Shown: piece after piece, positions 1,991 to 58,750 of the stretch
Numbering within the stretch: the stretch's first letter is position 1
How the letters are laid out: every line of letters starts with the position of its first letter
NCBI GenBank assembly: GCA_964607415.1
Contig: CAZSKK010000001.1
Span: 4,190 to 68,189, forward strand
Reading direction: 5' to 3'
DNA from: an uncultured Candidatus Saccharibacteria bacterium
Lineage (GTDB): Bacteria; Patescibacteriota; Dojkabacteria; J137
DNA: 64,000 nt
Translations under genes and position numbers: made by a program
Notes under the pieces: generated by a model
What the model saw: only the letters and a program-made list of their open reading frames with translations
The model's database searches: none
Told to the model about the DNA's origin: nothing

Positions 1991-2136
1991 TCCTCTTCGA
2001 GGATCAAATGCGGTCATAAGTTTCGGCTGTACTTCGTTTGCCTCAACTTGACCTTATTTGTCGAACTTTCGTTCTCATTTTTATTTCCTCTAATTTGCAA
2101 ATTTACCACTGCAAATTGCAGTGTTAAATTCACAAT

Positions 2137-2224: not shown

Positions 2225-2456
2225 ATGAATTAGTTTTGAGTTTAAGTAAATAGCAATAGTAAATGCTAAATGTTTATTATTGGTGCTGCTTTTTACTTGC
2301 ACTTAAACTTACACCTTGGCTTTCTTATGACTGTCTTAATCTCAGTCAAAGAATTATACTAAAAATTATCCTAAATGGCGAAGTGAAAATTCTTCTATAT
2401 TCATTCTATAATTTACATAAGTGCTAAAATAATTGTATAGCTGTTAGTTTATTCTT

Positions 2457-43538: not shown

Positions 43539-44027
43539 CTAACCCAACTCGTACTCTTTAACTTTAGAGTTATTTTCATCGTACACAAATACTCCGTTGA
43601 TAGTTTCGCCGTTCAAAACTTTCGGTATCCATTGTGGTGCGTCATCCCACATTCCTTCAAAAGGCAAACTATTAACATCAAACCATTCGGGAATAATTTC
43701 TTCTGATTCTGTTGGTACACCTTCCCATTTGGTGCATGTAAAAAGAACCACTTCCTGATTCCATTTTTCTTTTTCAGGAAAAAAGAACTTTACACTGCCC
43801 TTCCGTTCAAACTCGGTAGGTGTTACATTTATTTCTTCTTGCATCTCTCTAATTACAGCATCAACTTCCGTTTCACCTTCTTCTAGTTTCCCACCAATTC
43901 CAACATAATTTCCAGTTCCCATTCCTTCTTTACGTTTGCCTAATAAAACTTTATCGTTTTTTAGTAAGTAACAAACTACGCGGATTCCTAATTTTGTATT
44001 TTTCAATTCACGGATTTGTTTGTTCAT
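43539..44027 (-). CDS. NUDIX hydrolase (MutT-like).
   Basis: Nudix box GGKLEEGETEVDAVIREMQEEINV. Confidence 0.8.
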   Translation of the reverse strand: MNKQIRELKNTKLGIRVVCYLLKNDKVLLGKRKEGMGTGNYVGIGGKLEEGETEVDAVIREMQEEINVTPTEFERKGSVKFFFPEKEKWNQEVVLFTCTKWEGVPTESEEIIPEWFDVNSLPFEGMWDDAPQWIPKVLNGETINGVFVYDENNSKVKEYELG

Positions 44028-44142
44028 AAGAATATTATAATACTAATATAAAACTATATTTCGTATTTAGATTTTAGAATTTTGAATTTAAAATGTATAT
44101 GCACATATTGCACATTTTTTGCTCATGAAGTAACATCAACAA

Positions 44143-44742
44143 ATGAAAATATACTTTACAGCTTCAACTGCTGAATTCAATAAGTACAAAGATTTATACT
44201 TTCAGATCAGGGATATGCTTATTTCAGAAAGTCATATTTTAACTAGGGATTGGCTTTCTGACGCTAAAGACAGAATTGACCAAGGTAAAATTGACCGTTC
44301 TGACATAAAAGAAATTTATCAAGAATGTATGAAGGCTTTAAATGAAGCTGATTTAGTTATTATTGAAGATACAGTTTCAAATTTTAGTACTGGTCATCAA
44401 ATAACCGTAGCACTTCAGCGCCAAAAACCAACACTAGTGTTACGGTCAGTACCTAAAAATCAACATTTCAAAAATTCATTTATTGAAGGGATAGAATCTG
44501 ATTCGCTTGAAGTTCATAAATATGATGATTCAAATTTAGAAGATATAATTAGAACTTTTATTAAAAAGTACGAAAATGCAAATCAAAAGAACCGTTTTCA
44601 TTTAGTTTTAAGTGAAGTTGAGCGAAAATATTTAGATTGGGCACAATTTAGCAAAAATAAAAGTAGAACTAAGTTAATTCGAGATGCCATTAGAAAAAGT
44701 ATGGAAGAAGATGGCGAGTTTAGAGAATATTTAAAAAGTTAA
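44143..44742 (+). CDS. Hypothetical protein with an N-terminal NDT/SLOG-like alpha/beta domain and a C-terminal ribbon-helix-helix-like segment.
   Basis: MKIYFTAS...ADLVIIEDTVSNFSTGHQITVALQRQKPTLVL resembles the nucleoside deoxyribosyltransferase topology. The C-terminal HLVLSEVERKYLDWAQFSKNKSRTKLIRDAIRK is RHH-like. Both assignments are weak. Confidence 0.35.
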   Translation: MKIYFTASTAEFNKYKDLYFQIRDMLISESHILTRDWLSDAKDRIDQGKIDRSDIKEIYQECMKALNEADLVIIEDTVSNFSTGHQITVALQRQKPTLVLRSVPKNQHFKNSFIEGIESDSLEVHKYDDSNLEDIIRTFIKKYENANQKNRFHLVLSEVERKYLDWAQFSKNKSRTKLIRDAIRKSMEEDGEFREYLKS

Positions 44743-44745
44743 AAC

Positions 44746-45405
44746 ATGGTCTATTTCGAAGGTCAAATTACAAATGATAGATCGTTTAATTTATACGCAA
44801 GCATCCATGGGCGATTGAGGCTCTGTGAGTTTTTTCACGAGCATTTTGAGGGAGATGTTGTAGATTTAGGCTGTGGAAAAGGTAATTCACTTCAAGAGAT
44901 TGGCTATCACGCAAAAAATAAAAAAGTAATAGGAGTTGATTATGAACAAGAAGAGGCTAGTAATATTATTCATGCTGATTTTTCTAATATTCCATTAGAA
45001 ACAGGTAGTATTGGAAGAGTAATTTCGTCTTATGGAATAGGCTATTATGCGGAGTCATTAAAAGATTTGCAAGATCATTTTAAAGAGGTACGGAGGATAT
45101 TGAATGCTGGCGGAAAAATTATGATGGTTGTAGCTACTGATCAGTTTCTATCTAAATTTAACGACAATATTCCCAGAATGCATTTATCGCATATACAAGC
45201 ATTGCAAGAAATCAATCCAATATTAGTTGTTGAAATACCTAGTATGATGTCACAACAACAAATGATAGATGATTATTTAAAAGATGAATTTTCTTTTAAA
45301 ATAAACCTTTTACATATATTGAACTTTGGTTTTGAAATAGTTAGTTTTAAAGTTACAGGAACTGAGATAAGTTTAGAGTTGGAGGTGGGTAACGCTGAAG
45401 CATAA
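44746..45405 (+). CDS. Class I SAM-dependent methyltransferase.
   Basis: Motif I VVDLGCGKGNSL. The gap to the upstream ORF is 3 nt. Confidence 0.6.
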   Translation: MVYFEGQITNDRSFNLYASIHGRLRLCEFFHEHFEGDVVDLGCGKGNSLQEIGYHAKNKKVIGVDYEQEEASNIIHADFSNIPLETGSIGRVISSYGIGYYAESLKDLQDHFKEVRRILNAGGKIMMVVATDQFLSKFNDNIPRMHLSHIQALQEINPILVVEIPSMMSQQQMIDDYLKDEFSFKINLLHILNFGFEIVSFKVTGTEISLELEVGNAEA

Positions 45406-45467
45406 ATGAGACTGACGCTACTTTAGCCACCCCTCTTTGAAGAGGGGTAAACAACACAAAGTGTTGT

Positions 45468-45932
45468 TTGGGGTGTTGGAATTTTCTTCAAAATTTGTAT
45501 TTCAATACAATGTTTTTTCTTCTGAACTTGTCTATAATTTCTCTGCTGATCACATTTTATATGAGTTACGTTCCGTATAACAAAAAACTAAAACATCGGG
45601 CTAGTCATCTTCGAAATAACTCAACACGTGGAGAGACTTTATTATGGCAAAAGCTAAAACATAGACAGCAAGGTTACGATTTTAATCGACAGAAACCTTT
45701 GCTAAATTATATTGTAGACTTTTACTGTATAAAGTTAAAACTTGCAATTGAAATTGATGGCTCGTCTCACGATGAAGCTAAATTTGAGTACGATGAGAGA
45801 AGGCAAAGAGAACTTGAACGGGAAGGAATAACGTTCCTAAGATTTACAGAGTATGAGGCAAGAAACAGCCTTTATGAGGTGGTGCAAACGATTGAACTTA
45901 AGATTATGGAGCTGGAGCAGCAACACCCCTAA
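45468..45932 (+). CDS. DUF559 / Vsr-like endonuclease-domain protein. The true start is probably an internal Met.
   Basis: GETLLWQKLK...GYDFNRQ...IVDFYC...LAIEIDGSSHD...DERRQRELEREGITFLRF. Confidence 0.6.
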   Translation: MGCWNFLQNLYFNTMFFLLNLSIISLLITFYMSYVPYNKKLKHRASHLRNNSTRGETLLWQKLKHRQQGYDFNRQKPLLNYIVDFYCIKLKLAIEIDGSSHDEAKFEYDERRQRELEREGITFLRFTEYEARNSLYEVVQTIELKIMELEQQHP

Positions 45933-45983
45933 ATGCATAATATGCATTTCTCCCCTCTTCAAAGAGGGGAAATAACACTACAC

Positions 45984-46739
45984 CTAAATCGTCTTCAACC
46001 CAATTCCTCCATCCATAGTTAAAATTGTTCCAGTCATGGAATCATTTTTTGCTAAAAAGATTACACCATCTGCAATTTCTTCTGTGGTTATAAATCTTTC
46101 AATTAACTGTTGCTTGCCATAAAAATCTAAATCTTCTTTGGACATTTCACCCCAGTGAGGAGTTAATACATATCCAGGTGCAAGTGCATTTACAAGGATT
46201 CTAGGTGCATATTTTTTAGCCATACTTTTTGTAAAACTATTCATTGCAGCTTTGGATGCTCCATATGCCATATAGTCTTTATCTGATTTATCGTCAAATC
46301 CCCAAATTGATGAGATATTGATTATTTTCCTGATTGTATTACTACCTGCTATATTCAAAAATTCTTTGGAAGCTAAAACTGCACTCAAAAAATTATTATC
46401 AAGCTGATACTCCCAATCACTTAATTGAGCCATTGCTGGGTCTATGCTTCTTGCATCTCCTGAGTTATTGACTAAAATGTCTAAATTTCCATACTTTGCT
46501 TTAATTTTATTAAAAAGATCTTTAACTTCAGATTCTTTACTCATTTCTGCCCTAAAAAGCATGTGATCGCCACCCAGTTTTGAAATTTCTTCCAGAGTTT
46601 TATTTGCTTCATTTTCACTATTTCTAAAGTTGATAATTATATTTGCACCTTTTTTGGCAAAGGCAATTGCAATTGCTTTTCCAATGCCTTTGGAAGAACC
46701 GGTTACCAGGACGATTTTGTTTTTTAGGGTCATAAACAA
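45984..46739 (-). CDS. Short-chain dehydrogenase/reductase (FabG-like).
   Basis: TGSSKGIGKAIA and catalytic YGASKAA (YxxxK). Confidence 0.8.
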   Translation of the reverse strand: MFMTLKNKIVLVTGSSKGIGKAIAIAFAKKGANIIINFRNSENEANKTLEEISKLGGDHMLFRAEMSKESEVKDLFNKIKAKYGNLDILVNNSGDARSIDPAMAQLSDWEYQLDNNFLSAVLASKEFLNIAGSNTIRKIINISSIWGFDDKSDKDYMAYGASKAAMNSFTKSMAKKYAPRILVNALAPGYVLTPHWGEMSKEDLDFYGKQQLIERFITTEEIADGVIFLAKNDSMTGTILTMDGGIGLKTI

Positions 46740-47019
46740 TGATTAAAGAATAAAGATTATGAACGTTAATTAGTAAATACTATAGACAATTAATTGGTTT
46801 AATTTTCAATTAACAAAAAAACAACTGATGAATTAACCTATATTACATTATAGACTAATTATTGGAATTTGCTAAAATCTTATGGATTTTGTTCGGAATA
46901 TAAAAACTACAAGTTCAATTTCACAAGCCAAGCTTTAAAAGCAACAATCTTTCTGCTACAATATTCGCATGTTCAACAAATCTCACACTTCACAACTCTT
47001 TCTAATCAGAAAATCATGT

Positions 47020-47095
47020 TAGTTAACTAGCGTTATATTCGCAGGTCTATACGACCTAAGTGTCATCCTCGATTTCCCTCGGAATGACACAATTA
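47020..47095. repeat. Family 2 inverted-repeat element, second copy, immediately upstream of the ABC-F gene.
   Basis: ACTAGCGTTATATTC ... GTGTCATCCTCG-attt-CCCTCGGAATGACACAAT. Confidence 0.4.
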
Positions 47096-47120
47096 TATTA
47101 AATATAGTTAAAATACTAAC

Positions 47121-48557
47121 ATGATAAAAGCAACAAATTTAAAAATAGAATACAGTAAATTAATATTTCAAAACGTAACTTTTAAACTTGGAAACAAAGA
47201 AAAAGTTGGACTTGTAGGACTTAACGGCTGCGGCAAGTCTACTCTACTTAAAATCCTTGTTGGATTGGAACCTCAAGACGAAGGTACCGTTGAACTTGTT
47301 AATGAAAAAATAGCTTATCTTCCTCAAGAATATTCTTTTGAAAAAGATTTATTAATTGGCGAAGTTCTGGAAAGTTTAGTGGAAAATCAACACGAAATCT
47401 ACAAAGTTAATAAAGTTTTGGGAAAGTTAAAATTTGAACCTGACTGGTACCAAACTGTTGATACCTTAAGCCATGGACAAAAAATGAAGCTTTATTTGGC
47501 AAAGCTTTTGGTGCAAAATCCTACAATATTACTTTTAGATGAACCTACAAATCACTTGGATATTGAAGGCATTTTATGGCTTGAAGAATTTATTAAAAAC
47601 TTCGGTGGAATTTGCATAATAATCTCTCACGATAGAGCTTTTTTAAATGCTGTAACAAATCGAATTTTCGAAATTGACGAGCAAAAATTAAATATCTTTG
47701 AAGGAAATTATGATGATTATTTAGAGCAAAAACATGATGCAATTGCAGCGCAAAGAACGCAATTTATTTTGCAAGAAAGAAGAAGGCAAAAGTTTGAACA
47801 AATGATTACGAATATCAAATCTGGAGCAGGTGGTGAAAAACAAGCCAGAGCTCTAAAAGCTGCACGTAAAAGAATGGATCGAGAAGTTTTATCAAATGAA
47901 GTTGATTTATATAAAGAATCAAAAATTAGTGATTTTAATATTTCTGGGCAAAACCATAAAACTAAGCTAATTATTAAAGTTAAAGATTTAGATTTTGGTT
48001 ATGCAAATGGTTCGTACTTGTTTGAAAAAGCAAATTTTGAAATGTATGGAAAAGAAAAAATCTGGTTTTATGGTGCCAATGGCATTGGAAAATCAACTTT
48101 AGTTAAGCTAATTGTGGGCGAGTTACAACCAACAAGCGGTACAGTAAAAATTGGCGAAAACCTAAAATATACTTACTTTGCTCAGGATCAAAAACATGTA
48201 AATTATGATCAAACTGTAGAAGAATTTTTCTTAAAAAATACAGATGTAAGTTACAGCGGATCGTTTGGTATTTTAGAAAAATTCTTGTTTACTAAAGATA
48301 TGCGTAATAAAAAAATTGCAAAGTTAAGCCCGGGACAAAGAGCCAGATTAACCTTTGCTGTTTTTGCTCAAAAAGAATACGACTTTATGATTTTGGATGA
48401 GCCTACAAATCATTTGGATATTAAATCTAAAGAAGTGATTGAAACTGCTTTGCGGGAATACCAGGGCGCATTTTTACTAATTTCGCATGATAGATATTTT
48501 GTGGAAAGTATTGGAGTTGATAGAGCAATTACGATTAAAAACAATAAGGTCGTTTGA
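47121..48557 (+). CDS. ABC-F family ATPase (two tandem ABC domains, no TMD).
   Basis: Walker A GLNGCGKST and GANGIGKST; signatures LSHGQKMKL and LSPGQRARL; interdomain linker. Confidence 0.8.
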   Translation: MIKATNLKIEYSKLIFQNVTFKLGNKEKVGLVGLNGCGKSTLLKILVGLEPQDEGTVELVNEKIAYLPQEYSFEKDLLIGEVLESLVENQHEIYKVNKVLGKLKFEPDWYQTVDTLSHGQKMKLYLAKLLVQNPTILLLDEPTNHLDIEGILWLEEFIKNFGGICIIISHDRAFLNAVTNRIFEIDEQKLNIFEGNYDDYLEQKHDAIAAQRTQFILQERRRQKFEQMITNIKSGAGGEKQARALKAARKRMDREVLSNEVDLYKESKISDFNISGQNHKTKLIIKVKDLDFGYANGSYLFEKANFEMYGKEKIWFYGANGIGKSTLVKLIVGELQPTSGTVKIGENLKYTYFAQDQKHVNYDQTVEEFFLKNTDVSYSGSFGILEKFLFTKDMRNKKIAKLSPGQRARLTFAVFAQKEYDFMILDEPTNHLDIKSKEVIETALREYQGAFLLISHDRYFVESIGVDRAITIKNNKVV

Positions 48558-48660
48558 CGTAAGACAACTGATGCAATTTCCTCTCCATAGTGAATGAAAT
48601 GAAAGGATGGAGAGGGTGGTTTGAGCTTTGCTCAAACCGGGTGAGGATTAAAACTAAGCA
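48558..48660. repeat. GC-rich inverted-repeat element (family 1-related), copy h.
   Basis: CCTCTCCAT...ATGGAGAGGG inverted pair, GGTTTGAGC-tttg-CTCAAACC hairpin, CCGGGTGAGG. Confidence 0.35.
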
Positions 48661-48984
48661 CTAGCTAAAAAACAAAATCTCAACCACATCAATTGTGGGT
48701 GTTTCGTAAGGATGCACTTTTTTGATGGCTTTTAAAACAACCTCAAGCTTATCTTTCGGAAGAATCATCTCTACTTTGTCTTCAGGCTCTCTAAATAATT
48801 TGCCAACTGATCCAATAAAAGGATTGGCAGATTCGCTGGACTTATAGTTCCCAAGACCTTTTGTAATAAATGCACAGTGTGTGTAGTTGCCAACAATTCC
48901 AGCGCCGGCTTTACTCATTTCATCAATCAAAATGTCAGTGTGAGATTCAGGAACAGTAACGAAGATTTTGTAAATTTTTTCCAT
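48661..48984 (-). CDS. CutA/PII-like fold small protein.
   Basis: C-terminal HPYETP motif as in CutA1. 107 aa. Confidence 0.4.
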   Translation of the reverse strand: MEKIYKIFVTVPESHTDILIDEMSKAGAGIVGNYTHCAFITKGLGNYKSSESANPFIGSVGKLFREPEDKVEMILPKDKLEVVLKAIKKVHPYETPTIDVVEILFFS

Positions 48985-49082
48985 AGAATAATTATATTAA
49001 TCAAAAGAATAAAATGCAAAGAAACAGTTGAAAAATTTCTAATTACGTAGCAATATTATAGGATATACTTTAATAGTTATTT

Positions 49083-49556
49083 ATGAAAACATTAATTATC
49101 TATAAATCAAAATGGGGTGCAACAGAACAATACGCCAAATGTCTTGCAGAGGAGTTAACTGGTTCAATATTAAAATCCGTAGATGATGTGCTAGAGCCAG
49201 ATTTGAATGATGCTGATTTAATAATTTTAGGAAGCAGAACATATATTGGCCAAATCCAAATTGTTTCTTTTATTAAAAAGCATTGGCATATTTTAAAGAC
49301 AAAAAAACTTTATTTATTTAGTGTTGGAATTATTCCGTGGGAAAAACCAGATGCTAAAAAAGCTTTTGAAGCTATTCCTGAAGAAATTAGATCTTCTCTT
49401 CTAGGACATAGAAAGCTTCCAGGAAGAATTGATATGAATAAGCTTAATTTTTTACAAAAAATGATGGTTAAAGCCCAAAAGTCTGGAAATGTTGATAAAG
49501 TTGATAGAAAAGAGTTGGAAGTTGTTAAGGATGACTTAAAGAAGTTGCTAATATAG
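49083..49556 (+). CDS. Flavodoxin-like protein (HemG-like).
   Basis: MKTLIIYKSKWGATEQYAKCLAEEL...ADLIILGS. Confidence 0.55.
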   Translation: MKTLIIYKSKWGATEQYAKCLAEELTGSILKSVDDVLEPDLNDADLIILGSRTYIGQIQIVSFIKKHWHILKTKKLYLFSVGIIPWEKPDAKKAFEAIPEEIRSSLLGHRKLPGRIDMNKLNFLQKMMVKAQKSGNVDKVDRKELEVVKDDLKKLLI

Positions 49557-49594
49557 GAACGTTTTTCTCACACATGAATGTAGTTGGGGGAAAG

Positions 49595-49720
49595 TTTGGA
49601 AATAACTCCATTCGACAGCATAATATGCTGTCTCACCCTCTCAAGAGGGGAGATGGAACATTCCGATAACTCGCCAAACCCGTAAACTCGTTAACCCGCT
49701 AACTCGTAAACTGGCCTCTA
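49595..49720. repeat. GC-rich palindromic repeat (family 1), copy i, plus an imperfect approximately 16-nt tandem repeat (TAACTCG..AAACCCG) x3.
   Basis: CGACAGCATAATATGCTGTCTCACCCTCTCAAGAGGGGAG, then AACTCGCCAAACCCGTAAACTCGTTAACCCGCTAACTCGTAAACTGG. Confidence 0.45.
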
Positions 49721-50851
49721 CACAAACTCCATTGCAACAGTATTTTCCAAATCCATTCCTTTTTCAGAAAGCTTGAAGGAGACATCATCAATTTCAACTA
49801 AATTCTTGCTTTTCAAATCTCTAATCTCTTTTTTAAACAAATCCTTAAAGTTGTGTCCGAATTTATTCTTAAATTTAGAAAGGTTCATGCCGTCCATTAA
49901 TCTCAAATGCAAAATTATATATTCTTTTATTGCTTGCTTTTCTGAAATATCAATAACATTTTCTTTGTATTCTCGATTAAACAAAACTCCAGCCGCATAT
50001 TTTTCGACGCTATAAATATTATTAAAACGTTGGTTTTTAAAATATGAATGTGCGGATGCTCCAATTCCCAAGTACTCTTCTCCACCCCACACCGAAAGAT
50101 TATGTTTGCTTTCAAATCCAGGCTTTGCAAAATTGGAAATTTCGTAGTGTTTGTAGCCAGCTTTTTCAAGTTTTTCTTTTGCAATTTCGTACATTTGCCG
50201 GTCGAGTCCTTCTTCTAATCTTTTAAATCTACCTTGCTTTTCAAGAATTCCGAAAATTGATTCCTGATCCACTTCCAAACTATATGTAGAAATATGATTT
50301 GGTTTAAGTTTTATTACGTTATCAACACTTTCTTCCCAGTTTTGAATAGTTTGATTGGGAATGCCAAAAATTAAATCAAGGTTAATATTTTTAAAGCCTG
50401 ACTTGATTACCCTATCATAACTTTGCAAAAATTCTTCAATGGTATAAAGCCTTCCAAGATACTTTAGCATTTCATTCTGCCAGGCTTGTAAGCCAATACT
50501 AATTCTTGATATTCCTGAATCTAAATATGTTTGAAGCTTATCGCTGGTTAAATTTTCTGGATTTGTTTCAATAGAAATATCTAAATCTTTACTAACTTCA
50601 AAGTTATTTTTAATTAGTTCAACAATATCCTTTATGTACTTGGCATCAACAAGCGATGGAGTTCCACCTCCAAAGTAAATTGTTTTAACATAGTGATTTT
50701 TTAGATCTTTTTTGTAATCCAAAATCTCTTTATGAAGTGCTTTAAAGTATGCGGGTAGTTCGGGAGTACGGCCAGCAACAATAAAGAAGTTACAATAGCG
50801 GCATTTTGCTTTACAGTATGGAATGTGGATGTAGAGGTTGATTGGCTGCAT
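49718..50851 (-). CDS. hemW: Radical SAM heme chaperone HemW / coproporphyrinogen-III oxidase-like protein.
   Basis: Radical SAM Cx3Cx2C (YCKAKCRYCNF) and the HemN-like fold. Confidence 0.8.
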   Translation of the reverse strand: MQPINLYIHIPYCKAKCRYCNFFIVAGRTPELPAYFKALHKEILDYKKDLKNHYVKTIYFGGGTPSLVDAKYIKDIVELIKNNFEVSKDLDISIETNPENLTSDKLQTYLDSGISRISIGLQAWQNEMLKYLGRLYTIEEFLQSYDRVIKSGFKNINLDLIFGIPNQTIQNWEESVDNVIKLKPNHISTYSLEVDQESIFGILEKQGRFKRLEEGLDRQMYEIAKEKLEKAGYKHYEISNFAKPGFESKHNLSVWGGEEYLGIGASAHSYFKNQRFNNIYSVEKYAAGVLFNREYKENVIDISEKQAIKEYIILHLRLMDGMNLSKFKNKFGHNFKDLFKKEIRDLKSKNLVEIDDVSFKLSEKGMDLENTVAMEFV

Positions 50852-50865
50852 AATTATTCAAATTC

Positions 50866-51168
50866 TTAAGAAAGGTCTAACTGGTTTAGTATTTGATTTA
50901 CTCTATCTTCACTTAAAGCCCCAATAAATTCACCAAGCTGGGTTTTATTTATTGTAAGTGTAGTGTAAGTTTCAACAATACTTTGTTTGGGAAGATTTCC
51001 TTCGCCAGCTTCTAAAACTATAATTTGGGGCATATTCAGTTTTTTCATGTTTGTTGTTATGCCGCAAACTAGCAAAGAATCGTCTTCGTTAACTTTTACG
51101 GCCACGTATGGATGGGAAAATTTACTTTCAGTTTTTAGCCAGTAGATGGAGCCGTGTGTAATTTCCAT
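50866..51168 (-). CDS. MazF/PemK-family type II toxin (endoribonuclease).
   Basis: GSIYWLK...HPYVAV...LLVCGITTN...MPQIIVLEAGEGNLPKQSIVETYTTLTINKTQL..IG.LSEDRVNQILNQL matches the MazF/PemK pattern. Confidence 0.65.
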   Translation of the reverse strand: MEITHGSIYWLKTESKFSHPYVAVKVNEDDSLLVCGITTNMKKLNMPQIIVLEAGEGNLPKQSIVETYTTLTINKTQLGEFIGALSEDRVNQILNQLDLS

Positions 51169-51197
51169 TAGATTAGAAGTTTATATGATTTATCAAA

Positions 51198-52082
51198 TTA
51201 ATCCATTAATTCTATGAGCTTATTATAATTTGTATCTATAAATTCTGACAAATTCTCTTTAAAACCAAAAAATAGAATTCTTAGCACGTGCCCTAAATAA
51301 TACAGATTCTCCCTTTCTTGTTCTACTTTACCCATATTTAGAAACTCATGGTACATTTCAAGCATTTGCTTGTTATCATCAATTAAAAATAACCTTATTC
51401 TTGAAAAGTCATATAAAGGATCACCAAAATTTGCATCCGACCAATCAATAAATGCTTTAATCTGATTATCATCAATAATTATATTCCCACCGTGAATATC
51501 TGAGTGTAGCAGGGAATATTCTTTAGGTTCGGCTAATACTAAAATTGATTTATTAATTTTTTGGAGTGCACTATTAATTAAGCCTCCATCAAATCTTTTA
51601 TTTTGAATTAATTCCGTCCATTTATAATAAGGATGATCAATTTTATATTTTAAGGAAAAAAATTCTTTCCAACTCATGCCTTTACCTTTATATACCATCT
51701 CAAAATCACCAGCTAGATTTTCTTTTACTTTGTGTATGTCAGAAGTTATTTCTAAAATTCTTGGCAGGTATTTAATTACTGAATCTTTTTGTACAGTATC
51801 TAGTAATTTTCCTTCAACAAATTCAAATATTGCAATTTTATCTTCTACTGAGTAGCTAATAACCTTTGGGGCTGGAATTAAAATATTTTGATTTTTAATC
51901 TTATTCAAAACCAGAGCATCTACAACTGCATTGTAATCTGCTTTACAAATATATTTTTTGCCTTCCAAAGTTTTAAAGGTAAACACAATATGGTCATATC
52001 CAGATTTTGGAATTGTGATCTCTCCAATTTTAGTATTTAGAAGCTTTTCAGTTTTCGTAATAATTCTATCCGGGATAGTCAT
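51198..52082 (-). CDS. APH/choline-kinase family phosphotransferase.
   Basis: Catalytic loop HSDIHGGNIII and IDWSDANFGDPLYDF (Brenner and DFG-like motifs). Confidence 0.7.
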   Translation of the reverse strand: MTIPDRIITKTEKLLNTKIGEITIPKSGYDHIVFTFKTLEGKKYICKADYNAVVDALVLNKIKNQNILIPAPKVISYSVEDKIAIFEFVEGKLLDTVQKDSVIKYLPRILEITSDIHKVKENLAGDFEMVYKGKGMSWKEFFSLKYKIDHPYYKWTELIQNKRFDGGLINSALQKINKSILVLAEPKEYSLLHSDIHGGNIIIDDNQIKAFIDWSDANFGDPLYDFSRIRLFLIDDNKQMLEMYHEFLNMGKVEQERENLYYLGHVLRILFFGFKENLSEFIDTNYNKLIELMD

Positions 52083-52101
52083 AAAATATTCAATATGAAC
52101 T

Positions 52102-52659
52102 ATGATTTCAGCTTGCTTATGTATAGCTCTTATAATAACATTATCTCATATAAGTTATAACAAATTCATGGAAGCAGATTATCTTTACCGTTATGGAGCT
52201 ATTGCAATTATAGTTAAAGATGGAAAATTCCTTGTAATAAACGATATGGGTTTTAATCCAGGTGACTATGACTTTGTGGGTGGTGGAAGAGAAGGTAACG
52301 AAACCCCTGAAGAAAATTTATTTAGAGAAATACAAGAAGAAATAGGCTTAACATCAGAATCATTCCGATTAGTTGGTAAGAGCAAGCATCAAGTTAAATT
52401 TGATTTTAGTGGTGGTTTTAGAGAAATGGGAAATGTGAAGTATAAAGGTCAGATTAAAGACGCTTTTGTACTTGAGTTTTTAGGTGATGAAGAAGATATA
52501 AATCCTGCGCCGGATCAAGTAAGAAGCTACAAATGGGTAGATGCAAGTGAATTAAGTACACATTTAAATTTTAAAGGTCAACTGGAGAATGCAATGCGAA
52601 TAATCCAAGATGTTATTCCAGAATACCTTAGTGAGAATAAAGAGCAAAAATTGGTTTAA
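52102..52659 (+). CDS. NUDIX hydrolase. The likely start is an internal Met at about 52168.
   Basis: Nudix box GGGREGNETPEENLFREIQEEIGL. Confidence 0.8.
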   Translation: MISACLCIALIITLSHISYNKFMEADYLYRYGAIAIIVKDGKFLVINDMGFNPGDYDFVGGGREGNETPEENLFREIQEEIGLTSESFRLVGKSKHQVKFDFSGGFREMGNVKYKGQIKDAFVLEFLGDEEDINPAPDQVRSYKWVDASELSTHLNFKGQLENAMRIIQDVIPEYLSENKEQKLV

Positions 52660-53291
52660 TTTCCATTTAGCAATTTGTTAAAGAATTCGTATTCAAGTTT
52701 AGCTTGATAAACTTCAGTAAAAACATCTTCAAGTTTTTCGTTATGAATTCTTTTTAGGAGATTTAAAAGCGTATCAAAGTTTTTGTATTTAACTAATAAT
52801 TCTATTGCGTAACCAGATTCCTGGTAAACTCCATCCTCATGGAATTCTTGGCTGTTTAAAAACATTGAAAATTGGCCAGGGAATTTTTGTGAATTTTGAC
52901 CAGATGCATAAATTGCAACGCCTTCCCAAAGCCAGGTTGGGTAATATGTTGATTTGGTTATAATTTGGTAAAAACAATGTGCCATCTCGTGTTTGATTAG
53001 TTTGTAGTAATCATCTTCCTTGTATCTATCGCCTTTTTCCTTAATGTATGTTTGTTTATCTAGTACATAAAATTGATGAGAGCCAAATGTCCAGCCAGAC
53101 ATATTTGTATTGTCACGGTTTTGCCAATTGTTAACAGTATTTCTGTCTTCAACCAAAAGTAGTTTAGGTAAATTGCGCACCCAGTTTAGTTTAAACAGGT
53201 CGTTGAGTTCTTTAAAAGCTTTATCGTAAAGCTCGCTAAGCTCTGTAGATTGGATTGATTTTAGGGAGAAAATGTTGGTATTCATAAGCAT
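52656..53291 (-). CDS. Hypothetical HExxH-motif protein (putative zinc metallohydrolase).
   Basis: KHEMAHCFYQ. No further assignment. Confidence 0.35.
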   Translation of the reverse strand: MLMNTNIFSLKSIQSTELSELYDKAFKELNDLFKLNWVRNLPKLLLVEDRNTVNNWQNRDNTNMSGWTFGSHQFYVLDKQTYIKEKGDRYKEDDYYKLIKHEMAHCFYQIITKSTYYPTWLWEGVAIYASGQNSQKFPGQFSMFLNSQEFHEDGVYQESGYAIELLVKYKNFDTLLNLLKRIHNEKLEDVFTEVYQAKLEYEFFNKLLNGN

Positions 53292-53424
53292 GATTATAGG
53301 ACTAGATGGGGGGATTGTCGAGAAGAAGAAATTTTGACCCTACAGGTCTCAGCATCGAACTCTTTCTTCTTTGACCTCATAGAGTCGATTAAGTCCTTTG
53401 TACAATGGTTTTCGATAAATAATC

Positions 53425-53967
53425 TTAATCTAAATTTTTAGCTAAGTTATTTATTAAAAGATCACTATATGATTCAGAAATAAAATCACTTGGATTGATC
53501 TTCAATAAATGTTGAACAACTTTATGCTCTTCTTGGATTTTATCATAATCATCACCTTCTAAAACTTCACTTTCAAGCTCAACAAATAAACCTAAGTTTT
53601 TTACTTCATCAATATGAATAAATGTGTTCTCAAACTTGTACTTCTTTCTCTTTTTAGTCACTATTACTTTTACTCCTAATGATTGAGTAAGCATTTCTTT
53701 TAAACTATTGTAATCCTCAATATTCAATGTTTTATAAGTTGAAGTCTTAGAATCAGATAAATTCTCCCTTTCGTAGTAGATTAAAGCACCTCTTTTATTA
53801 TCTGAAATTCTCAGTTTCAATCTTCCATTAGGAGATTTGAAATAGTAATCTACCTGATCGCTAATCTTAATAAAGGTGGCATTATTATTGCTCAATATAT
53901 TTTTTAAAGATTCTAGATCTTGAATTCTAGCTTTTGTTTCAATATTTAGGTTCTGCATATTCAACAT
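53425..53967 (-). CDS. CYTH-domain protein (CyaB/ThTPase-like triphosphate tunnel metalloenzyme).
   Basis: N-terminal ETKARI (ExK), YYF, RLKLRIS, ERENLSDSKT, and a beta-rich body of about 180 aa. Confidence 0.55.
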   Translation of the reverse strand: MLNMQNLNIETKARIQDLESLKNILSNNNATFIKISDQVDYYFKSPNGRLKLRISDNKRGALIYYERENLSDSKTSTYKTLNIEDYNSLKEMLTQSLGVKVIVTKKRKKYKFENTFIHIDEVKNLGLFVELESEVLEGDDYDKIQEEHKVVQHLLKINPSDFISESYSDLLINNLAKNLD

Positions 53968-54086: not shown

Positions 54087-54794
54087 ATGGCACTGGCGAC
54101 GAAGAAGAAAGTATTAGTAATTGAAGATGACAAACTTTTGGCTGTAGTAATTCAAAAGAAGGTCGCTAAACTCGGCTATGACGTATTCATAGTTAATAAT
54201 GGGGATGATGGATATAGCAAAGCTATCTCCAATGAATATTCCTTGGTAATTTGTGATATTGCTTTACCTTCAACAACTTCTGAAATAACTAATGGATTTA
54301 CAATTGTAGAAAAAATGAAGCAAAAAGGTATGAAAACACCAATTATTATAATTACCGATAATGCTACAAAAGAGAATGAAATGAAAACATATGTAAATGG
54401 GGCTAATATATTCCATAAGAAAATTGACTATGATTTATTAGGAGTTCAAGTTATTTCTCTAATTGATTCTTACAAACTTCAATCAGAAATAGAAAGAGGT
54501 GATATTATTTTAGATCCTTCTAAGGAAACTTTTAAAAAAGCAGGAGTTATCTATGAACTTACTCGTAAAGAATTTATCCTGATGCTTATATTACTAAGTT
54601 CTCCAGGTGAAGTTTTTTCAAGAAGAGAAATTTTAAGTAAGTACGTTACTAGAATGAATAGTGAAGAGAGTTCAGTTGATACTCTAGTTAGTAGATTAAG
54701 AAGAAAGTTAGGGAAGTATAAGGGTGAAGAAGTTATTGAGACAATACATGGTAGAGGCTTTAGATTAAGTCTTAAATATTTAGAAACTAAATAA
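54087..54794 (+). CDS. OmpR-family response regulator.
   Basis: Receiver domain (VLVIEDD...VICDIALP) plus a winged-helix trans_reg_C (LTRKEFILM...VDTLVSRLRRKLG...IETIHGRGFRL). Confidence 0.85.
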   Translation: MALATKKKVLVIEDDKLLAVVIQKKVAKLGYDVFIVNNGDDGYSKAISNEYSLVICDIALPSTTSEITNGFTIVEKMKQKGMKTPIIIITDNATKENEMKTYVNGANIFHKKIDYDLLGVQVISLIDSYKLQSEIERGDIILDPSKETFKKAGVIYELTRKEFILMLILLSSPGEVFSRREILSKYVTRMNSEESSVDTLVSRLRRKLGKYKGEEVIETIHGRGFRLSLKYLETK

Positions 54795-56148
54795 CCTGAT
54801 TAAATGCTAGTGTAAATTTAGTATATTTACCTAATTTACTTTCTACATCGACATCAGCTTTAAATTTTTCCTGCATGGTGCTTTTTACAAAAGCTAATCC
54901 TAAACCCAAATTATAGTGAGTATGTTTTTGCGAATAATCTTCTTCAAATACTTTCTCTAAATATTCTTTTGGAATACCACGCCCATTATCTAAGATTTCT
55001 ATCTGAACTTTATTATTACGATTTAATAATCTAATTTTAATAACGCCTTCATAATCAACACTTTTTAGCTCCTCTATCGCATTTACAAGTATATTTATTA
55101 GAATTCTTTCATATAAACTTACTACTCCTTTAATTCTGAATTCTACATCCTCAATCTCTAACTCAATTTTTATTTTGTTAGAGCTAAATTCATTATTTAA
55201 AATCTTGATTACTCGTTCAAGGTGATCTTTAGGGTTGAATGTTTGTACTAAATCCTTACCTCTCATTATCTCTTTACTTTCATAAATTATTTCGTTTATG
55301 TGTGTCAAAGATTCGATAGCAAGACTTATTAACTCTTCATCATATTCCTTAGTATCATTTAAAATCTCTAAAGTACCTTTCAAACCACTAAAAGGAGTAG
55401 TTAAGTCATGTAGTAAAGGCTTAGCTATACTACCAATAACAGATGTATCATACATTGTTTCAATTTGTTTATTGAAGTTATCTTGAAGAGTTTTTGTTCT
55501 TGCTTTGATGATCTCTTCTAGCTTGGTATTCATATCTTCTAATTTCTGTGCATACTTAAAAGCACTATCATAGTAAGTTTGCATTTTATGGAATGAGATA
55601 TGAATTAATTTTAAGACTACAAATAATAGTGTAAAGATCATAATCGCTGAATTAAAGTTTGGAGGTTCGGTATCTGGTGTATAAGGGACTACGCCCTGAA
55701 TTTGAAGGTAAGTTATAAACGACATCCATCCAAGCATTATTATGAAATAGATAATTGCTACTTTAAATCCTAATACAACCATTATCGACATAAGGGTAAT
55801 TACTACTACGATGTTAAGTGTTGACATATCTATTCCATAAAGACTCGTAGAAAATAATATTGTAATTGTTAGTATTATCACCTGTATAAACATGAAGATT
55901 CGATAATTCTTAAACGTGATTTTAATTCTAAGAATCATTAAGGCTACATTTATAAGCACTACAAAGATGAATGCCATGATTTGAGGTTGTTTATTGAATT
56001 CATAATCATTTGCAATCCAATTTCTAAGATAAATACCTAAAGCAACTAACGCAATACAAATGAGAACATCATAAATGAATCTGACAACTTCAAACCTTAC
56101 TTTATCGAGTTCTTTTGTATATTTTTTATAATGTTGTTTATTTTTCAT
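54787..56148 (-). CDS. Membrane sensor histidine kinase.
   Basis: Multiple N-terminal TM helices; H-box LLHDLTTPFSGLKG; HATPase N and G boxes (LVNAIEEL, DNGRGIP, GLGLAFV). Convergent with the response regulator and overlapping it by 8 nt. Confidence 0.8.
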   Translation of the reverse strand: MKNKQHYKKYTKELDKVRFEVVRFIYDVLICIALVALGIYLRNWIANDYEFNKQPQIMAFIFVVLINVALMILRIKITFKNYRIFMFIQVIILTITILFSTSLYGIDMSTLNIVVVITLMSIMVVLGFKVAIIYFIIMLGWMSFITYLQIQGVVPYTPDTEPPNFNSAIMIFTLLFVVLKLIHISFHKMQTYYDSAFKYAQKLEDMNTKLEEIIKARTKTLQDNFNKQIETMYDTSVIGSIAKPLLHDLTTPFSGLKGTLEILNDTKEYDEELISLAIESLTHINEIIYESKEIMRGKDLVQTFNPKDHLERVIKILNNEFSSNKIKIELEIEDVEFRIKGVVSLYERILINILVNAIEELKSVDYEGVIKIRLLNRNNKVQIEILDNGRGIPKEYLEKVFEEDYSQKHTHYNLGLGLAFVKSTMQEKFKADVDVESKLGKYTKFTLAFNQVI

Positions 56149-56494: not shown

Positions 56495-56908
56495 TTAAAG
56501 TGTTGCTATGAACTGTTTCACTTCTTGTGGTAATTTCTCAAAGCTTTCTTTATGGTGCAGCTCTAATATCTCATCGTAATTAAAATATCTAGCATCTACT
56601 AAATCATCTCCTGCCGTAGGTTCATCGTTACTAGTACATAAGAAGACAGTACCGTGACTTTTTGAATCTCCAACTACAAGTTCATATTCGCTAAGCTTCC
56701 TAATTATAGTTAGAGCCATATTAAGCTCTTCCTTCATTTCTCTTATTAGAGTATCTTCAATTAATTCATCGCCATCAGCTTTTCCACCTGGAAAATGCCA
56801 AGCATCATTTAAAAAATGTCCAGGTCTATTTCCCTTTTTTCCCATTAATACTTTCTTATCTTTTACTATAATAGCAATCACTCCTCTTCTTATATATTCA
56901 CTTGCCAT
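56495..56908 (-). CDS. NUDIX hydrolase.
   Basis: Nudix box GGKADGDELIEDTLIREMKEELNM. Confidence 0.8.
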   Translation of the reverse strand: MASEYIRRGVIAIIVKDKKVLMGKKGNRPGHFLNDAWHFPGGKADGDELIEDTLIREMKEELNMALTIIRKLSEYELVVGDSKSHGTVFLCTSNDEPTAGDDLVDARYFNYDEILELHHKESFEKLPQEVKQFIATL

Positions 56909-56918
56909 AATAATATTA

Positions 56919-57305
56919 TTAAATATATTTAATTAATTCTTTTGGACTTAAAGCATATCCATCAAACAATACATCTCTACTAACTTCTTGATCTTTCATT
57001 AAAGCATAGATTGGTTTCTTCATTGCATAAGCATATGCAAGTTCCATAGTTACACTATTTCCACAATAGCCTTCTTTATTATAAATGAAGACTACATCAG
57101 CTCTTTCAATTAAGTCGAAATATTCTATAGTAAGACCTTTATATAACTTTCTCAAAGCAGCTTCAGATAGTTTGTCCCAATCATCTGTTCTAAATCCAAG
57201 TTTTGGATAGATTACCCTAAATCCAGCATCTTCAAGTTCTTTAGCAAAGTTTTCAATTTCCTCACCTGCTTTTTTAATTGATCCACTAATTACTATAGTT
57301 TTCAT
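56919..57305 (-). CDS. Nucleoside 2-deoxyribosyltransferase-like (NDT/SLOG superfamily) protein.
   Basis: MKTIVISGS...ADVVFIY...GNSVTMELAYAYAMKKPIYAL: Rossmann-like, with the conserved Glu in the G-x-x-x-E-hG-hA motif. Confidence 0.6.
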   Translation of the reverse strand: MKTIVISGSIKKAGEEIENFAKELEDAGFRVIYPKLGFRTDDWDKLSEAALRKLYKGLTIEYFDLIERADVVFIYNKEGYCGNSVTMELAYAYAMKKPIYALMKDQEVSRDVLFDGYALSPKELIKYI

Positions 57306-57311
57306 AATATA

Positions 57312-58232
57312 TTAATTAAAAATATCCCAATCAAAATCTCTTAGAAACTCTTGATGTAATCTAATTCTTCTTGTACTAAATTCATTTAATTCTTCAGAAT
57401 AATATGCAAGATATTCAATAACTCTTGATAACCAGTACAAAGTGTCCAATTTCTTTTCTGCTTTAGTATAATTCATTAATTTGTAATATTCATGAATAGC
57501 TTTATCTCCTAAATTAAAGTGCCAGATATACATTCTTATTCTTGCGAAATCATAGATCGGGTCTCCGTACATTGCTTCACCCCAATCTATTATTGCCGCT
57601 AATTCATCAGTTTCAGAATTCACGAATAGATTCCTTTGGTTAAAGTCAGAATTCAATAGAGAATAGTTTGAATCTATAAATTTATTCTTTGAAATTACTT
57701 CAATAATTTTGTCTATAGAGTCTAAAATTAATTGCTTATCTAATCCCTCTCGCTTAGATATTTTAACCCAATCTAAATTAGAATTATCACCATTGAAAAA
57801 AGAGAGTAAGAAATCTTTCCATAAATTATATTTTTGATGCGAGTTTAGGTATCCTGCTTTATCAGATTTAACTCTATGTAGTTTCTCCAGATTTTCCACC
57901 ATTGAAGGTATATATTTGCTCATTTCCATGCCTTCAATAGTTTCTAATAATGGAGCTGAAATCTTTTCTAAAATTACAATAGATTTTCCTTCAAAGGTAA
58001 AGCTATCAATGAGTTTCGGTACTGCTAGGTCAACATTTGATTGTTGAAGTATTCTTAAAACGTTAGCATCATTATTATTCTCTTCGCTTTGTTTAATTGC
58101 ATATTCATTGCTATTTTCATCCTTTAAAAAAACTACAGAGCTACCCATTCCTTGTGGTGGAATAGTAGAATCAACAATTATAATATTTAATCTCTTTTGT
58201 ATTTCCTCAATTAGAGCATTCATATATTCCAT
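57312..58232 (-). CDS. APH/choline-kinase family phosphotransferase.
   Basis: LLNSDFNQRNLFV (catalytic loop) and IIDWGEAMYGDPIYDFARI. Confidence 0.7.
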   Translation of the reverse strand: MEYMNALIEEIQKRLNIIIVDSTIPPQGMGSSVVFLKDENSNEYAIKQSEENNNDANVLRILQQSNVDLAVPKLIDSFTFEGKSIVILEKISAPLLETIEGMEMSKYIPSMVENLEKLHRVKSDKAGYLNSHQKYNLWKDFLLSFFNGDNSNLDWVKISKREGLDKQLILDSIDKIIEVISKNKFIDSNYSLLNSDFNQRNLFVNSETDELAAIIDWGEAMYGDPIYDFARIRMYIWHFNLGDKAIHEYYKLMNYTKAEKKLDTLYWLSRVIEYLAYYSEELNEFSTRRIRLHQEFLRDFDWDIFN

Positions 58233-58746
58233 TCACTAAAATGGTTAATTTTTTCTTTAGTTCTCTTTTGATTATATCTCTAGTTCCAGTCCAGCTTAAT
58301 TCTTGATCAATAATATCTATTGGAACAAATTTTCTAAATTGCTGTAACCCGCCTGGATCTTTTATAAATTTATCAATCTTTTTTACCCTTGAGATAAATC
58401 TAAGCTGAGTAGAATCATAAATTTCTTTTCCATCTTTTATTTCATAAGCAATTACATAGAAGAATGGGATAATATATCCCTCATCAATAGTTATTGCAGT
58501 TTCTTCATAAACTTCTCGAATCAATGTTTGTTCGGGAGTCTCACCTTTTTCTCTTGTTCCACCGGGTAATCCCCACCAAGAGCCATCTGCGCTTACTAAT
58601 AGTATTTCATTCTTTTCATTAAGGATTACTCCTAAGCTCTGAGTAGGATCAGTTTCTATAATAGCAAAATCGTTATCAAAGTATTCCTTAAAAAGGATTT
58701 CTTTGTTACCGATTTTAAATTTTGTCTCATTAGTAGGCATCTTCAT
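58207..58746 (-). CDS. NUDIX hydrolase.
   Basis: Nudix box GGTREKGETPEQTLIREVYEETAI. Confidence 0.8.
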   Translation of the reverse strand: MKMPTNETKFKIGNKEILFKEYFDNDFAIIETDPTQSLGVILNEKNEILLVSADGSWWGLPGGTREKGETPEQTLIREVYEETAITIDEGYIIPFFYVIAYEIKDGKEIYDSTQLRFISRVKKIDKFIKDPGGLQQFRKFVPIDIIDQELSWTGTRDIIKRELKKKLTILVNGIYECSN

Positions 58747-58750
58747 GACA

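Follow-up and report, generated by a model that had tools for sequence, protein, structure and literature searches.

A conserved MTH1-like NUDIX and DNPH1-like gene pair with a putative operator in a NUDIX-rich region of a Candidate Phyla Radiation genome

Overview

The stretch described here, positions 43539–53967 of a 64000-nt segment of contig CAZSKK010000001.1 (the window, meaning that whole segment), begins with a divergent gene pair that encodes an MTH1-like NUDIX hydrolase and a protein combining a DNPH1-like domain with a ribbon–helix–helix (RHH)-like tail. This pair, which is conserved across classes of the Candidate Phyla Radiation (CPR) and has a putative operator between its two genes, is the most valuable outcome of the analysis. 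We also consider it probable that genes for nucleotide-pool sanitation and salvage are truly concentrated here, in a manner typical of the lineage, and that the stretch belongs to this concentration, which is built of separate modules and not of one system. The window has ∼32% GC and compact genes throughout. The proteins it encodes have homologues labelled Dojkabacteria, Doudnabacteria, WWE3, Pacebacteria, Parcubacteria, or ‘Patescibacteria group’, and these names indicate a CPR bacterium, in line with the small-genome host guessed by a first-pass annotation made from the letters alone. Sequence identical to the window is present on many Logan contigs and on one NCBI contig of 584,792 bp. CPR bacteria as a rule cannot make nucleotides de novo and depend on nucleic acids that they scavenge.

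The MTH1-like NUDIX gene and its divergent partner

The pair, hereafter module 1, has the features below; the gene that follows it is added as the last line.

43539–44027, minus strand: MTH1/NUDT1-like NUDIX hydrolase, 162 aa (Pfam NUDIX, 58 bits)
44071–44099, minus strand: predicted sigma-70-type promoter of the NUDIX gene from a consensus scan (−35 TATACA, 44099–44094; 17-nt spacer; −10 TAAAAT, 44076–44071)
44100–44126, plus strand: putative operator of three direct repeats (TGCACAT, 44100–44106; TGCACAT, 44109–44115; TGCTCAT, 44120–44126; spacing 9 and 11 nt)
44131–44136, plus strand: predicted −10 box of the regulator gene, TAACAT, with 17 nt to TTGCAC upstream and 6 nt to the ATG downstream
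44143–44742, plus strand: regulator candidate, 199 aa, with an N-terminal DNPH1/Rcl-like (NDT-fold) domain and a C-terminal RHH-like domain
44746–45405, plus strand: class I S-adenosylmethionine (SAM) methyltransferase (Pfam Methyltransf_11/25)

A metagenome scan with the family of the regulator candidate yielded 80 loci, 41 of which form a close subfamily, and 35 of these hold enough upstream DNA to be informative. In 33 of the 35, the next gene upstream of the regulator gene is a divergent NUDIX gene on the opposite strand, and 32 of those 33 NUDIX proteins best match the one at 43539–44027 (35–49% identity). The divergent arrangement, which the first-pass annotation had recognised, is thus a conserved one. 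The same annotation had the regulator gene overlap the methyltransferase gene; the two are instead separated by a 3-nt gap. The methyltransferase was rejected as a member of module 1, as no homologue was found among the neighbours in the 80 related loci. Full-text searches of the literature returned no account of the NUDIX/NDT–RHH pair or of NUDIX clustering in CPR, and the pair is apparently undescribed so far.

In phmmer searches of the PDB, the NUDIX protein of the pair aligned with human MTH1 over residues 19–152 (E 2.5e-26) and with Escherichia coli MutT at E 4.6e-10, a full-length likeness greater to MTH1 than to MutT that places it in the MTH1 subfamily. The base-recognition residues of MTH1 are Asn33, Trp117, Asp119, and Asp120. 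The window protein keeps the Trp and one Asp (MWDD compared to MWPDD), has Val for Asn33, and has Ala for Asp120 unless the alignment is shifted by one residue.

The AlphaFold2 (AF2) model of the regulator candidate (predicted local distance difference test, pLDDT, 80.6) was compared with the PDB by Foldseek, and the top 50 matches were all DNPH1/Rcl, with target template modelling (TM) scores of 0.7–0.8. The family profile also matches Rcl in HMMER (E 1e-4), and a distant paralogue in locus L089 passes the Pfam cutoff for NDT with 30.9 bits. Fold search and profile together identify the N-terminal domain as one of DNPH1/Rcl fold. Two proteins of the window had been called SLOG/NDT-like at first pass; the NDT part of that label stands, with Pfam scores below the gathering cutoff for both open reading frames (ORFs; 18.8 and 26.9 compared to 28.8 bits), and the SLOG part falls, as the N-terminal domain of the 44143 protein is DNPH1/NDT-like.

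DNPH1/Rcl enzymes use a glutamate as nucleophile (E104 in human, E93 in rat) and an aspartate as general acid (D80 in human, D69 in rat). Neither is present in the regulator domain, which has Gln and Cys at these positions: in the HMMER alignment GYE of Rcl corresponds to GHQ, and the catalytic Asp to Cys. Q86, C62, and Y4 are invariant in 20 regulator sequences, and the active-site Tyr is kept. Of 129 superfamily representatives, 80 carry Gln at the nucleophile position and 17 carry Glu. We did not file the protein as an active DNPH1/NDT enzyme because the nucleophile Glu and the Asp are replaced, and, given the loss of both, the domain probably binds a nucleotide without cleaving it.

In the C-terminal part, the pattern NRFHLVL–helix–KSRT–helix fits an RHH domain, and 5 of 20 family members have weak RHH_1 matches (best E 0.015). 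The AF2 monomer shows two or three helices at the C-terminus after a disordered segment. The family is 55–72% identical across CPR classes and comprises 461 clusters at 50% identity (E ≤ 1e-10). We put forward, as a tentative proposal, that DNPH1-like/RHH proteins of ∼200 aa constitute a large unrecognised CPR family of nucleotide-sensing transcription factors, in which the module 1 subfamily would sense a damaged or non-canonical (deoxy)nucleoside monophosphate ((d)NMP) and control the MTH1-like sanitiser through a TGCACAT operator.

A distant NDT-like/RHH subfamily (25–32% identity) occurs in head-to-tail tandem arrays of up to six paralogues, with neither a NUDIX partner nor the TGCACAT operator. 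Such arrays lie at L093 5989–9420 and L113 1122–3966, and also in L088, L091, L101, and L106.

Divergent promoters and the putative operator

The intergenic region between the 43539 NUDIX gene and the 44143 regulator gene is 115 bp long and holds the block TGTATATGCACATATTGCACATttttTGCnCAT, whose core columns are 90–100% conserved, compared to only 55–72% identity for the proteins of the same loci. In 23 of 24 strict matches, 43–46 nt separate the start of the block from the regulator ATG, which lies downstream. Its three repeats lie about one helical turn apart at a conserved, fixed distance from the ATG, and they overlap the −35 box of the regulator gene, TTGCAC (44108–44113). The 16-mer ATGCACAYNTTGCACA is found in 30 of the 41 close-subfamily loci, in exactly one copy per locus and just upstream of the regulator gene, as well as five times at the window's own site in strain copies; no other fetched locus contains it, and it occurs only once in the window. 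A wider regulon was considered and rejected, as the operator motif occurs once in the window and elsewhere, among the fetched loci, only upstream of regulator genes.

An alignment of the intergenic region from 22 loci (A3) also covers both predicted promoters. For the NUDIX promoter, the TA...T of the −10 box and TGTATA are conserved columns. For the regulator promoter, columns T72, A73, and T77 of the −10 box are invariant or nearly so (consensus TAnnAT), and the box ends 6 nt before the ATG in nearly all loci. The transcript would therefore be leaderless or near-leaderless, and we regard a leaderless regulator mRNA as probable on this promoter prediction. The position of the repeat block over both divergent −35 boxes suggests the site of a nucleotide-sensing repressor.

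A scheme that would join these elements is as follows. The MTH1-like NUDIX enzyme would turn non-canonical or damaged (deoxy)nucleoside triphosphates ((d)NTPs) into (d)NMPs; the RHH-like tail of the regulator would bind the three TGCACAT repeats over the −35 boxes of both divergent promoters; and a nucleotide bound by the disabled DNPH1-like domain, possibly the NUDIX product, would tune the expression of both genes. The pairing of the genes, the DNA block, the fold, and the residue replacements are observations, from which DNA binding, a nucleotide ligand, and the direction of regulation are predicted.

Density and divergence of the NUDIX genes

Besides the 43539 gene, four NUDIX genes of the window score above the Pfam gathering cutoff (PF00293):

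52102–52659, plus strand: NUDIX gene divergent from APH-like kinase 1 (Pfam, 52 bits; gene callers place the start at ∼52168, giving 163 aa; best PDB match an Ap4A hydrolase, E 6e-6)
56495–56908, minus strand: NUDIX gene
58207–58746, minus strand: NUDIX gene
59336–60046, minus strand: NUDIX gene

All five are intact, lie within 43.5–60 kb in a span of 16.5 kb, and score 45–58 bits against a cutoff of 21.1. The first-pass annotation had counted six in about 20 kb; the enrichment it described is real, the number and the span being five genes and 16.5 kb. No sixth NUDIX gene was found in scans of 30–64 kb with strict and loose Nudix-box regular expressions, a hidden Markov model (HMM) derived from those five, jackhmmer, and Pfam, the Pfam scan covering all ORFs of 30–64 kb and ten ORFs of 1–19 kb. 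Degenerate NUDIX boxes, which would have undone the earlier claim, are not seen: the glutamates of the REUXEE motif (RE..EE) are kept in 5/5, and the final Gly of the Nudix box is replaced by N, N, and A in three. None of the five proteins reaches an NCBIfam equivalog cutoff.

As a background sample we used 585 kb of CPR contigs that had been fetched for other reasons and selected without regard to NUDIX linkage. They hold seven NUDIX genes outside the conserved pair, or ∼1.2 per 100 kb. At this rate the Poisson probability of at least five NUDIX genes in 16.5 kb is 2e-6, which places the density far above normal, as had been claimed; at the higher NUDIX density found around APH-family genes it is 5e-4. 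In a tally from the ORF lists, nucleotide-related families account for 13 of 26 genes to the right of 43.5 kb compared to 0 of ∼45 to the left (Fisher P 2e-7), the left part having been screened with window-derived models for only NUDIX, HD, CYTH, 2H, the 56919-type NDT, and nucleotidyltransferase (NTase), and with Pfam over some of its length.

The NUDIX paralogues are 24–39% identical over their longest aligned stretches in all-against-all BLASTP and are otherwise alignable only around the Nudix box. Recent duplication was rejected on these identities, and with it the ‘expansion’ of the first-pass annotation in that sense. Its suggestion that the clustering is tied to the lineage fares better, since similar clusters of four to five NUDIX genes are found in two related loci, L016 and L125. 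We read the enrichment as a functional clustering of anciently diverged genes for nucleotide-pool maintenance.

APH-like kinases and the genes around kinase 1

The second group of genes, module 2 (51198–53967), contains the 52102 NUDIX gene and the following features.

51198–52082, minus strand: APH-like small-molecule kinase 1, 294 aa (Pfam APH, 57 bits; Fructosamin_kin, 29.8 bits)
52656–53291, minus strand: putative metallopeptidase of HExxH...E type, 211 aa (Peptidase_MA_2, 24 bits, below cutoff; HEMAH and downstream WEG)
53339–53340: strain-variable junction between the HExxH and CYTH genes (L002, L003, and L004 match the window at 100% identity as far as 53339 and differ or stop beyond it)
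53425–53967, minus strand: CYTH (triphosphate tunnel) protein (Pfam CYTH, PF01928, 63 bits; TIGR00318, 72.4 bits against a cutoff of 57.95)

The two APH-like kinases of the window reach 57 and 66 bits with PF01636, whose cutoff is 23.2, and are 31% identical over their full length. D196, N201, and D216, which form the catalytic loop D....N and the metal-binding Asp of IDW, are invariant in the family alignment. Kinase 1 is indeed divergent from the 52102 NUDIX gene, as first described. A genome-contig search with kinase 1 alone gave no match; the search with the alignment of the kinase-2 family returned 29 CPR loci. NUDIX is the most frequent neighbour family there (11 of 29 loci), at a density of 3.8 per 100 kb compared to the background of 1.2. 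A fusion of the two families, 456 aa with an N-terminal NUDIX and an APH/choline-kinase-like domain, is encoded at L018 4122–5492 in a CPR genome, 0.5 kb downstream of an APH-family gene. In three loci a kinase-2-family gene has beside it a CYTH gene, all from a single neighbour family (two confirmed by Pfam), and in six loci it adjoins SDR genes. The APH family is kept at ∼50% identity across many CPR classes, and the closest CPR relatives of the 52102 NUDIX protein adjoin APH-family genes (L019 and L028).

The CYTH protein has NIETK in place of the N-terminal motif ExExK, the first Glu being replaced by Asn. In L014, a sister species, a CYTH copy of 43% identity is found 4 kb upstream of the orthologue of kinase 1, and this linkage suggests that the window allele at the junction is ancestral rather than inserted. 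Past 53339, other strains have tRNA-Glu(TTC) followed by MarR, DUF1801, TPR, SDR, and methyltransferase genes (L002 6780–6851; L004 1–30), and the window has a short remnant resembling a tRNA 3′ end and the repeated GAGGTCAAA. The CYTH protein of the window differs from that of the 584,792-bp contig. Neither tRNA-Glu nor a copy of its 3′ end, looked for with island integration in mind, was found in the window. Taken together, the genes of module 2 are only loosely linked; their arrangement at 51–54 kb is not conserved, yet the combination recapitulates a recurrent CPR association.

An operon at 56495–60046 and clusters in related loci

Immediately to the right of the stretch is a two-component system and, beyond it, module 3.

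54087–54794, plus strand: OmpR-type response regulator (Pfam)
54787–56148, minus strand: histidine kinase, convergent with the response regulator (Pfam)
56495–60046, minus strand: tight six-gene operon in the order NUDIX, HD_3 (YfbR-like), NUDIX, APH-like kinase 2, NDT-like, NUDIX (Pfam; gaps of −26 to +18 nt)
56919–57305, minus strand: NDT-like protein (PF05014, 26.9 bits against a cutoff of 28.8, E 6e-6)
57312–58232, minus strand: APH-like kinase 2 (Pfam)
58751–59317, minus strand: HD_3 gene (Pfam)

The convergent response-regulator/histidine-kinase pair reported at first pass is present, with an 8-nt overlap (54787–54794). Such a tail-to-tail overlap is unusual for a two-component pair, and it is kept in L016 (17 nt, 12616–12632).

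For the NDT-like protein of the operon, phmmer searches of the PDB were uninformative, an hhalign comparison with the NDT–RHH family was not significant, and single-sequence AF2 gave a pLDDT of 43. By eye, its GSIK, FDL, and MEL match GSIR, QDL, and YEL of DNPH1. The two NDT-like proteins of the window share no significant similarity. In the product of the operon's first gene, 59336–60046 on the minus strand, the canonical Nudix box is preceded by ∼90 additional N-terminal residues, which look winged-helix-like by eye and contain no Pfam domain; if this were a winged helix, the domain order would be the reverse of that in NrtR. The GC content is slightly lower at 54–60 kb.

The nearest relative, L016 (CAYMSO010000012.1), carries five NUDIX genes in 9.7 kb, shares the NUDIX–APH–NUDIX core of the operon at 80, 78, and 57% identity, and has the same convergent pair beside its NUDIX/APH cluster (65% and 52% identity). 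The 16 co-directional genes at L016 12–10973 encode, in order, NUDIX, DUF2797, Tmk-like, RNase T, P-loop NTPase, Ham1, 5′–3′ exonuclease, NUDIX, HIT, 2H, NUDIX, NUDIX, APH, a NUDIX–HIT fusion, NTP_transf_2, and GNAT, and are followed by the histidine-kinase/response-regulator pair. A cluster from the window's own population, L125 2030–14391, comprises four NUDIX genes, an N-terminal fragment of CTP synthase, NTPase_I-T, GNAT, a third APH paralogue (53% identity), 2H, and ABC-F, and adjoins a GAF histidine kinase.

Interpretation and alternatives

We read the 43.5–60 kb region as three modules that would each serve the nucleotide pool: the sanitising pair described above; module 2, which would echo the recurrent CPR association of the kinase with NUDIX, CYTH, and SDR; and module 3, the NUDIX–HD–NUDIX–APH–NDT–NUDIX operon, which adjoins the two-component system. 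The MTH1-like, DNPH1-like, YfbR-like HD, Ham1, and ITPase-like families fit pool sanitation and salvage, which is in line with the link to nucleotide scavenging drawn at first pass. The other families named then (two APH-like kinases, HD, CYTH, HExxH, and 2H) were likewise recovered by Pfam or motifs, with HExxH and 2H below the Pfam cutoffs.

Several observations weigh against this reading. The background density comes from heterogeneous metagenome contigs and not from the source genome, and half of the genes in 43.5–54 kb are without relation to nucleotides. Module 2 may be only a loose neighbourhood: a conserved adjacency of kinase 1 and NUDIX was rejected, as the contexts of three orthologues (66, 51, and 48% identity) have no neighbouring NUDIX gene, and the HExxH protein has no homologue in any fetched related locus. 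The nearest solved relatives of the APH family are antibiotic kinases, at a remote distance (E 4e-10 with a profile). Within module 1, Asn33 and Asp120 of the MTH1 pocket appear to be replaced, which makes the substrate uncertain; the RHH assignment is based on a sequence pattern, the weak Pfam matches, and the repeat operator, and a PDB profile search with the C-terminal tail gave no RHH or other relevant match.

Four other explanations were weighed, all of them unlikely in our view and taken here in decreasing order of likelihood. The first is a role in the processing and repair of RNA ends, in which NUDIX and HIT proteins would act as decapping enzymes or 5′-pyrophosphohydrolases and the 2H protein as a cyclic phosphodiesterase, while the APH-like protein would phosphorylate polynucleotides or nucleosides and a CCA/poly(A)-type nucleotidyltransferase would rebuild 3′ ends. 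Two adjacent genes at the right end of the window bear on it.

61029–61586, minus strand: 2H phosphoesterase, 185 aa (HCTL and HLTL motifs)
61588–63012, minus strand: 474-aa protein with a PolyA_pol/CCA-type nucleotidyltransferase head (Pfam), directly upstream of the 2H gene

The 2H protein has the two HxT/S motifs of its family at a Pfam score of 24.7 bits, below the cutoff of 27. Its orthologues or paralogues stand beside APH-family genes in L016 and L125, so that 2H and APH occur together in three clusters of the lineage, one of them also next to the PolyA_pol-head protein. The HIT/DcpS-like domains, RNase T, 5′–3′ exonuclease, and NTP_transf_2 of L016 point the same way, as does the 52102 NUDIX protein, whose best NCBIfam matches are RppH models. 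These matches, however, reach 43 bits against cutoffs of 116–259. The substrates of MTH1-like, DNPH1-like, YfbR-like, Ham1, NTPase_I-T, and Tmk-like proteins are free nucleotides, no ligase was found, and we know of no polynucleotide kinase with an APH fold. An RNA role is thus plausible for the 2H, nucleotidyltransferase, and HIT genes and does not suit the MTH1-, DNPH1-, YfbR-, and Ham1-type members. The 474-aa protein itself has two nucleotidyltransferase-like halves, with motifs matching the PolyA_pol/CCA head, GS...DFD in the N-terminal and GGAVRD...DFD in the C-terminal one.

Less likely again is antibiotic or xenobiotic modification, by which the APH-like kinases and their GNAT neighbours would inactivate aminoglycoside-like compounds of hosts or neighbours, with the NUDIX genes as bystanders. 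The best solved relatives of the kinases are hygromycin-B 4-O-kinase and APH(2''), and a GNAT gene lies directly upstream of the L125 APH paralogue, with another in the L016 cluster, an adjacency that resembles AAC/APH pairs. The likeness to resistance enzymes is nevertheless remote, with NCBIfam scores far below cutoff, and the ∼50% identity of the family across CPR classes is that of a core gene; the NUDIX–APH fusion and the recurrent NUDIX and CYTH neighbours would also be left unexplained.

We hold it still more improbable that the region is an anti-phage defence island acting by nucleotide depletion or signalling, together with the MazF-like toxin and the DUF559 and GIY-YIG nucleases. Burroughs, Aravind and colleagues reportedly described in 2015 how NUDIX, NDT/TIR-like, CYTH, HD, and 2H recur in nucleotide-centric conflict systems; all NUDIX genes match the candidate model PDC-S07, the strain-variable junction at 53339 involves a tRNA gene, and the dip in GC at 54–60 kb would suit an island. 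Scans with PADLOC-DB 2.0, however, identified no system and gave only generic matches to the NUDIX domain (PDC-S07), an ABC ATPase, and methyltransferases. No effector/sensor architecture is evident, and the NDT–RHH and APH families were not found in IMG/VR viral contigs, and the defence link entertained at first pass gained no positive evidence. Module 1 shows the conservation expected of core genes (55–72% identity across CPR classes), and the linkage of CYTH to kinase 1 in the sister species makes the window allele look ancestral.

Least likely is co-localisation without shared function, independent NUDIX genes lying near each other by happenstance, for which the paralogues unrelated beyond the superfamily, the interleaved unrelated genes, and the kinase-1 orthologues lacking NUDIX neighbours speak, and against which stand P ∼2e-6 over background, the same cluster type in L016 and L125, the tight operon, the conserved module 1 pair, and the NUDIX–APH fusion.

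Comparison with known systems

Under the interpretation as nucleotide-pool modules, the closest parallels to the regulator candidate are NrtR, the Nudix-related transcriptional regulator of NAD metabolism, whose catalytic residues are often degenerate, and PurR and PyrR, which are similar enzyme-derived sensor regulators. As in these, a fold derived from a nucleotide enzyme would be combined with a DNA-binding domain, and the gene adjoins nucleotide-metabolism genes, whose control is a prediction here. It differs from them in having a DNPH1/NDT-like sensor and not a Nudix or PRT one, an RHH-like domain and not a winged helix, three heptamer direct repeats, and an MTH1-like NUDIX gene as the predicted target.

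Compared with the human enzymes, the 43539 protein resembles MTH1 (NUDT1) over its full length and appears to depart from it at Asn33 and Asp120. The 44143 protein shares its N-terminal fold and the Tyr with DNPH1, and differs by Gln for Glu104, Cys for Asp80, and the additional, putatively DNA-binding tail. The human MTH1 and DNPH1 genes are not linked. The families of the house-cleaning enzymes MutT, RppH, YfbR, RdgB/Ham1, and YjjX (NTPase_I-T) are represented in the window and its sister clusters; their genes are scattered in model bacteria, whereas here four to five NUDIX genes cluster with APH-like, 2H, CYTH, and NDT-like genes. With APH(4)-Ia, APH(2''), Mph, and the bifunctional AAC/APH, the kinases share the fold, the catalytic motifs, and, in the sister clusters, an adjacent GNAT gene; unlike APH(4)-Ia, APH(2''), and Mph, to which their similarity is remote, they form a conserved CPR family with NUDIX, CYTH, SDR, and 2H neighbours. 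The domains shared with nucleotide-centric conflict systems (NUDIX, NDT/TIR-like, CYTH, HD, and 2H) come without effector/sensor pairs, a mobile-element context, or a PADLOC match, and with core-like conservation.

The gathering of many sanitising enzymes into a few clusters in one CPR lineage bears on how imported nucleotide pools are cleaned. With a divergent promoter of 115 bp and two small proteins, a candidate regulator and an enzyme, module 1 is a compact unit open to direct testing; the pair recurs across CPR classes, and work on it in vitro or in E. coli would require no culture of the source bacterium. The recurrence of the APH-like kinase with NUDIX, and their fusion, flag an uncharacterised kinase family whose substrate is worth seeking. 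If the proposal is true, the regulator family and the APH–NUDIX–2H–CYTH clusters would amount to a dedicated, regulated network for nucleotide quality control in bacteria obliged to import all of their nucleotides.

Other genes of the window

Between modules 1 and 2 are mostly unrelated genes of housekeeping type, and 43.5–54 kb, which had been presented as one stretch of related genes, is not a unit, as these occupy 44.7–51.2 kb.

45468–50851: genes for DUF559, SDR, an ABC-F ATPase, a 107-aa ORF, flavodoxin, and a HemW-like radical SAM enzyme (Pfam)
50866–51168, minus strand: PemK/MazF-like protein, 100 aa (Pfam PemK_toxin, 35.7 bits)

The PemK/MazF-like gene lies between APH-like kinase 1 and the HemW-like radical SAM gene, in the same orientation. 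The toxin named at first pass is supported by a PemK domain above the cutoff; the layout of a type II toxin–antitoxin system is missing, PADLOC gave no match, and no antitoxin gene was found beside it, the upstream neighbour across a 29-nt gap being the 294-aa kinase with no small ORF between.

Near the left end of the window, a gene on the plus strand (3324–4238, 304 aa) matches PF18723, the helical domain of 5-hmdU DNA kinases, with 63 bits against a cutoff of 25. A GNAT gene (2457–3314, plus strand) and a tRNA-Ser gene (2136–2225, minus strand) are close by. The PF18723 family is known from thymidine hypermodification in phages, and human DNPH1 hydrolyses 5hm-dUMP; given this substrate, the presence of a PF18723 protein alongside DNPH1-like proteins in the same window is intriguing.

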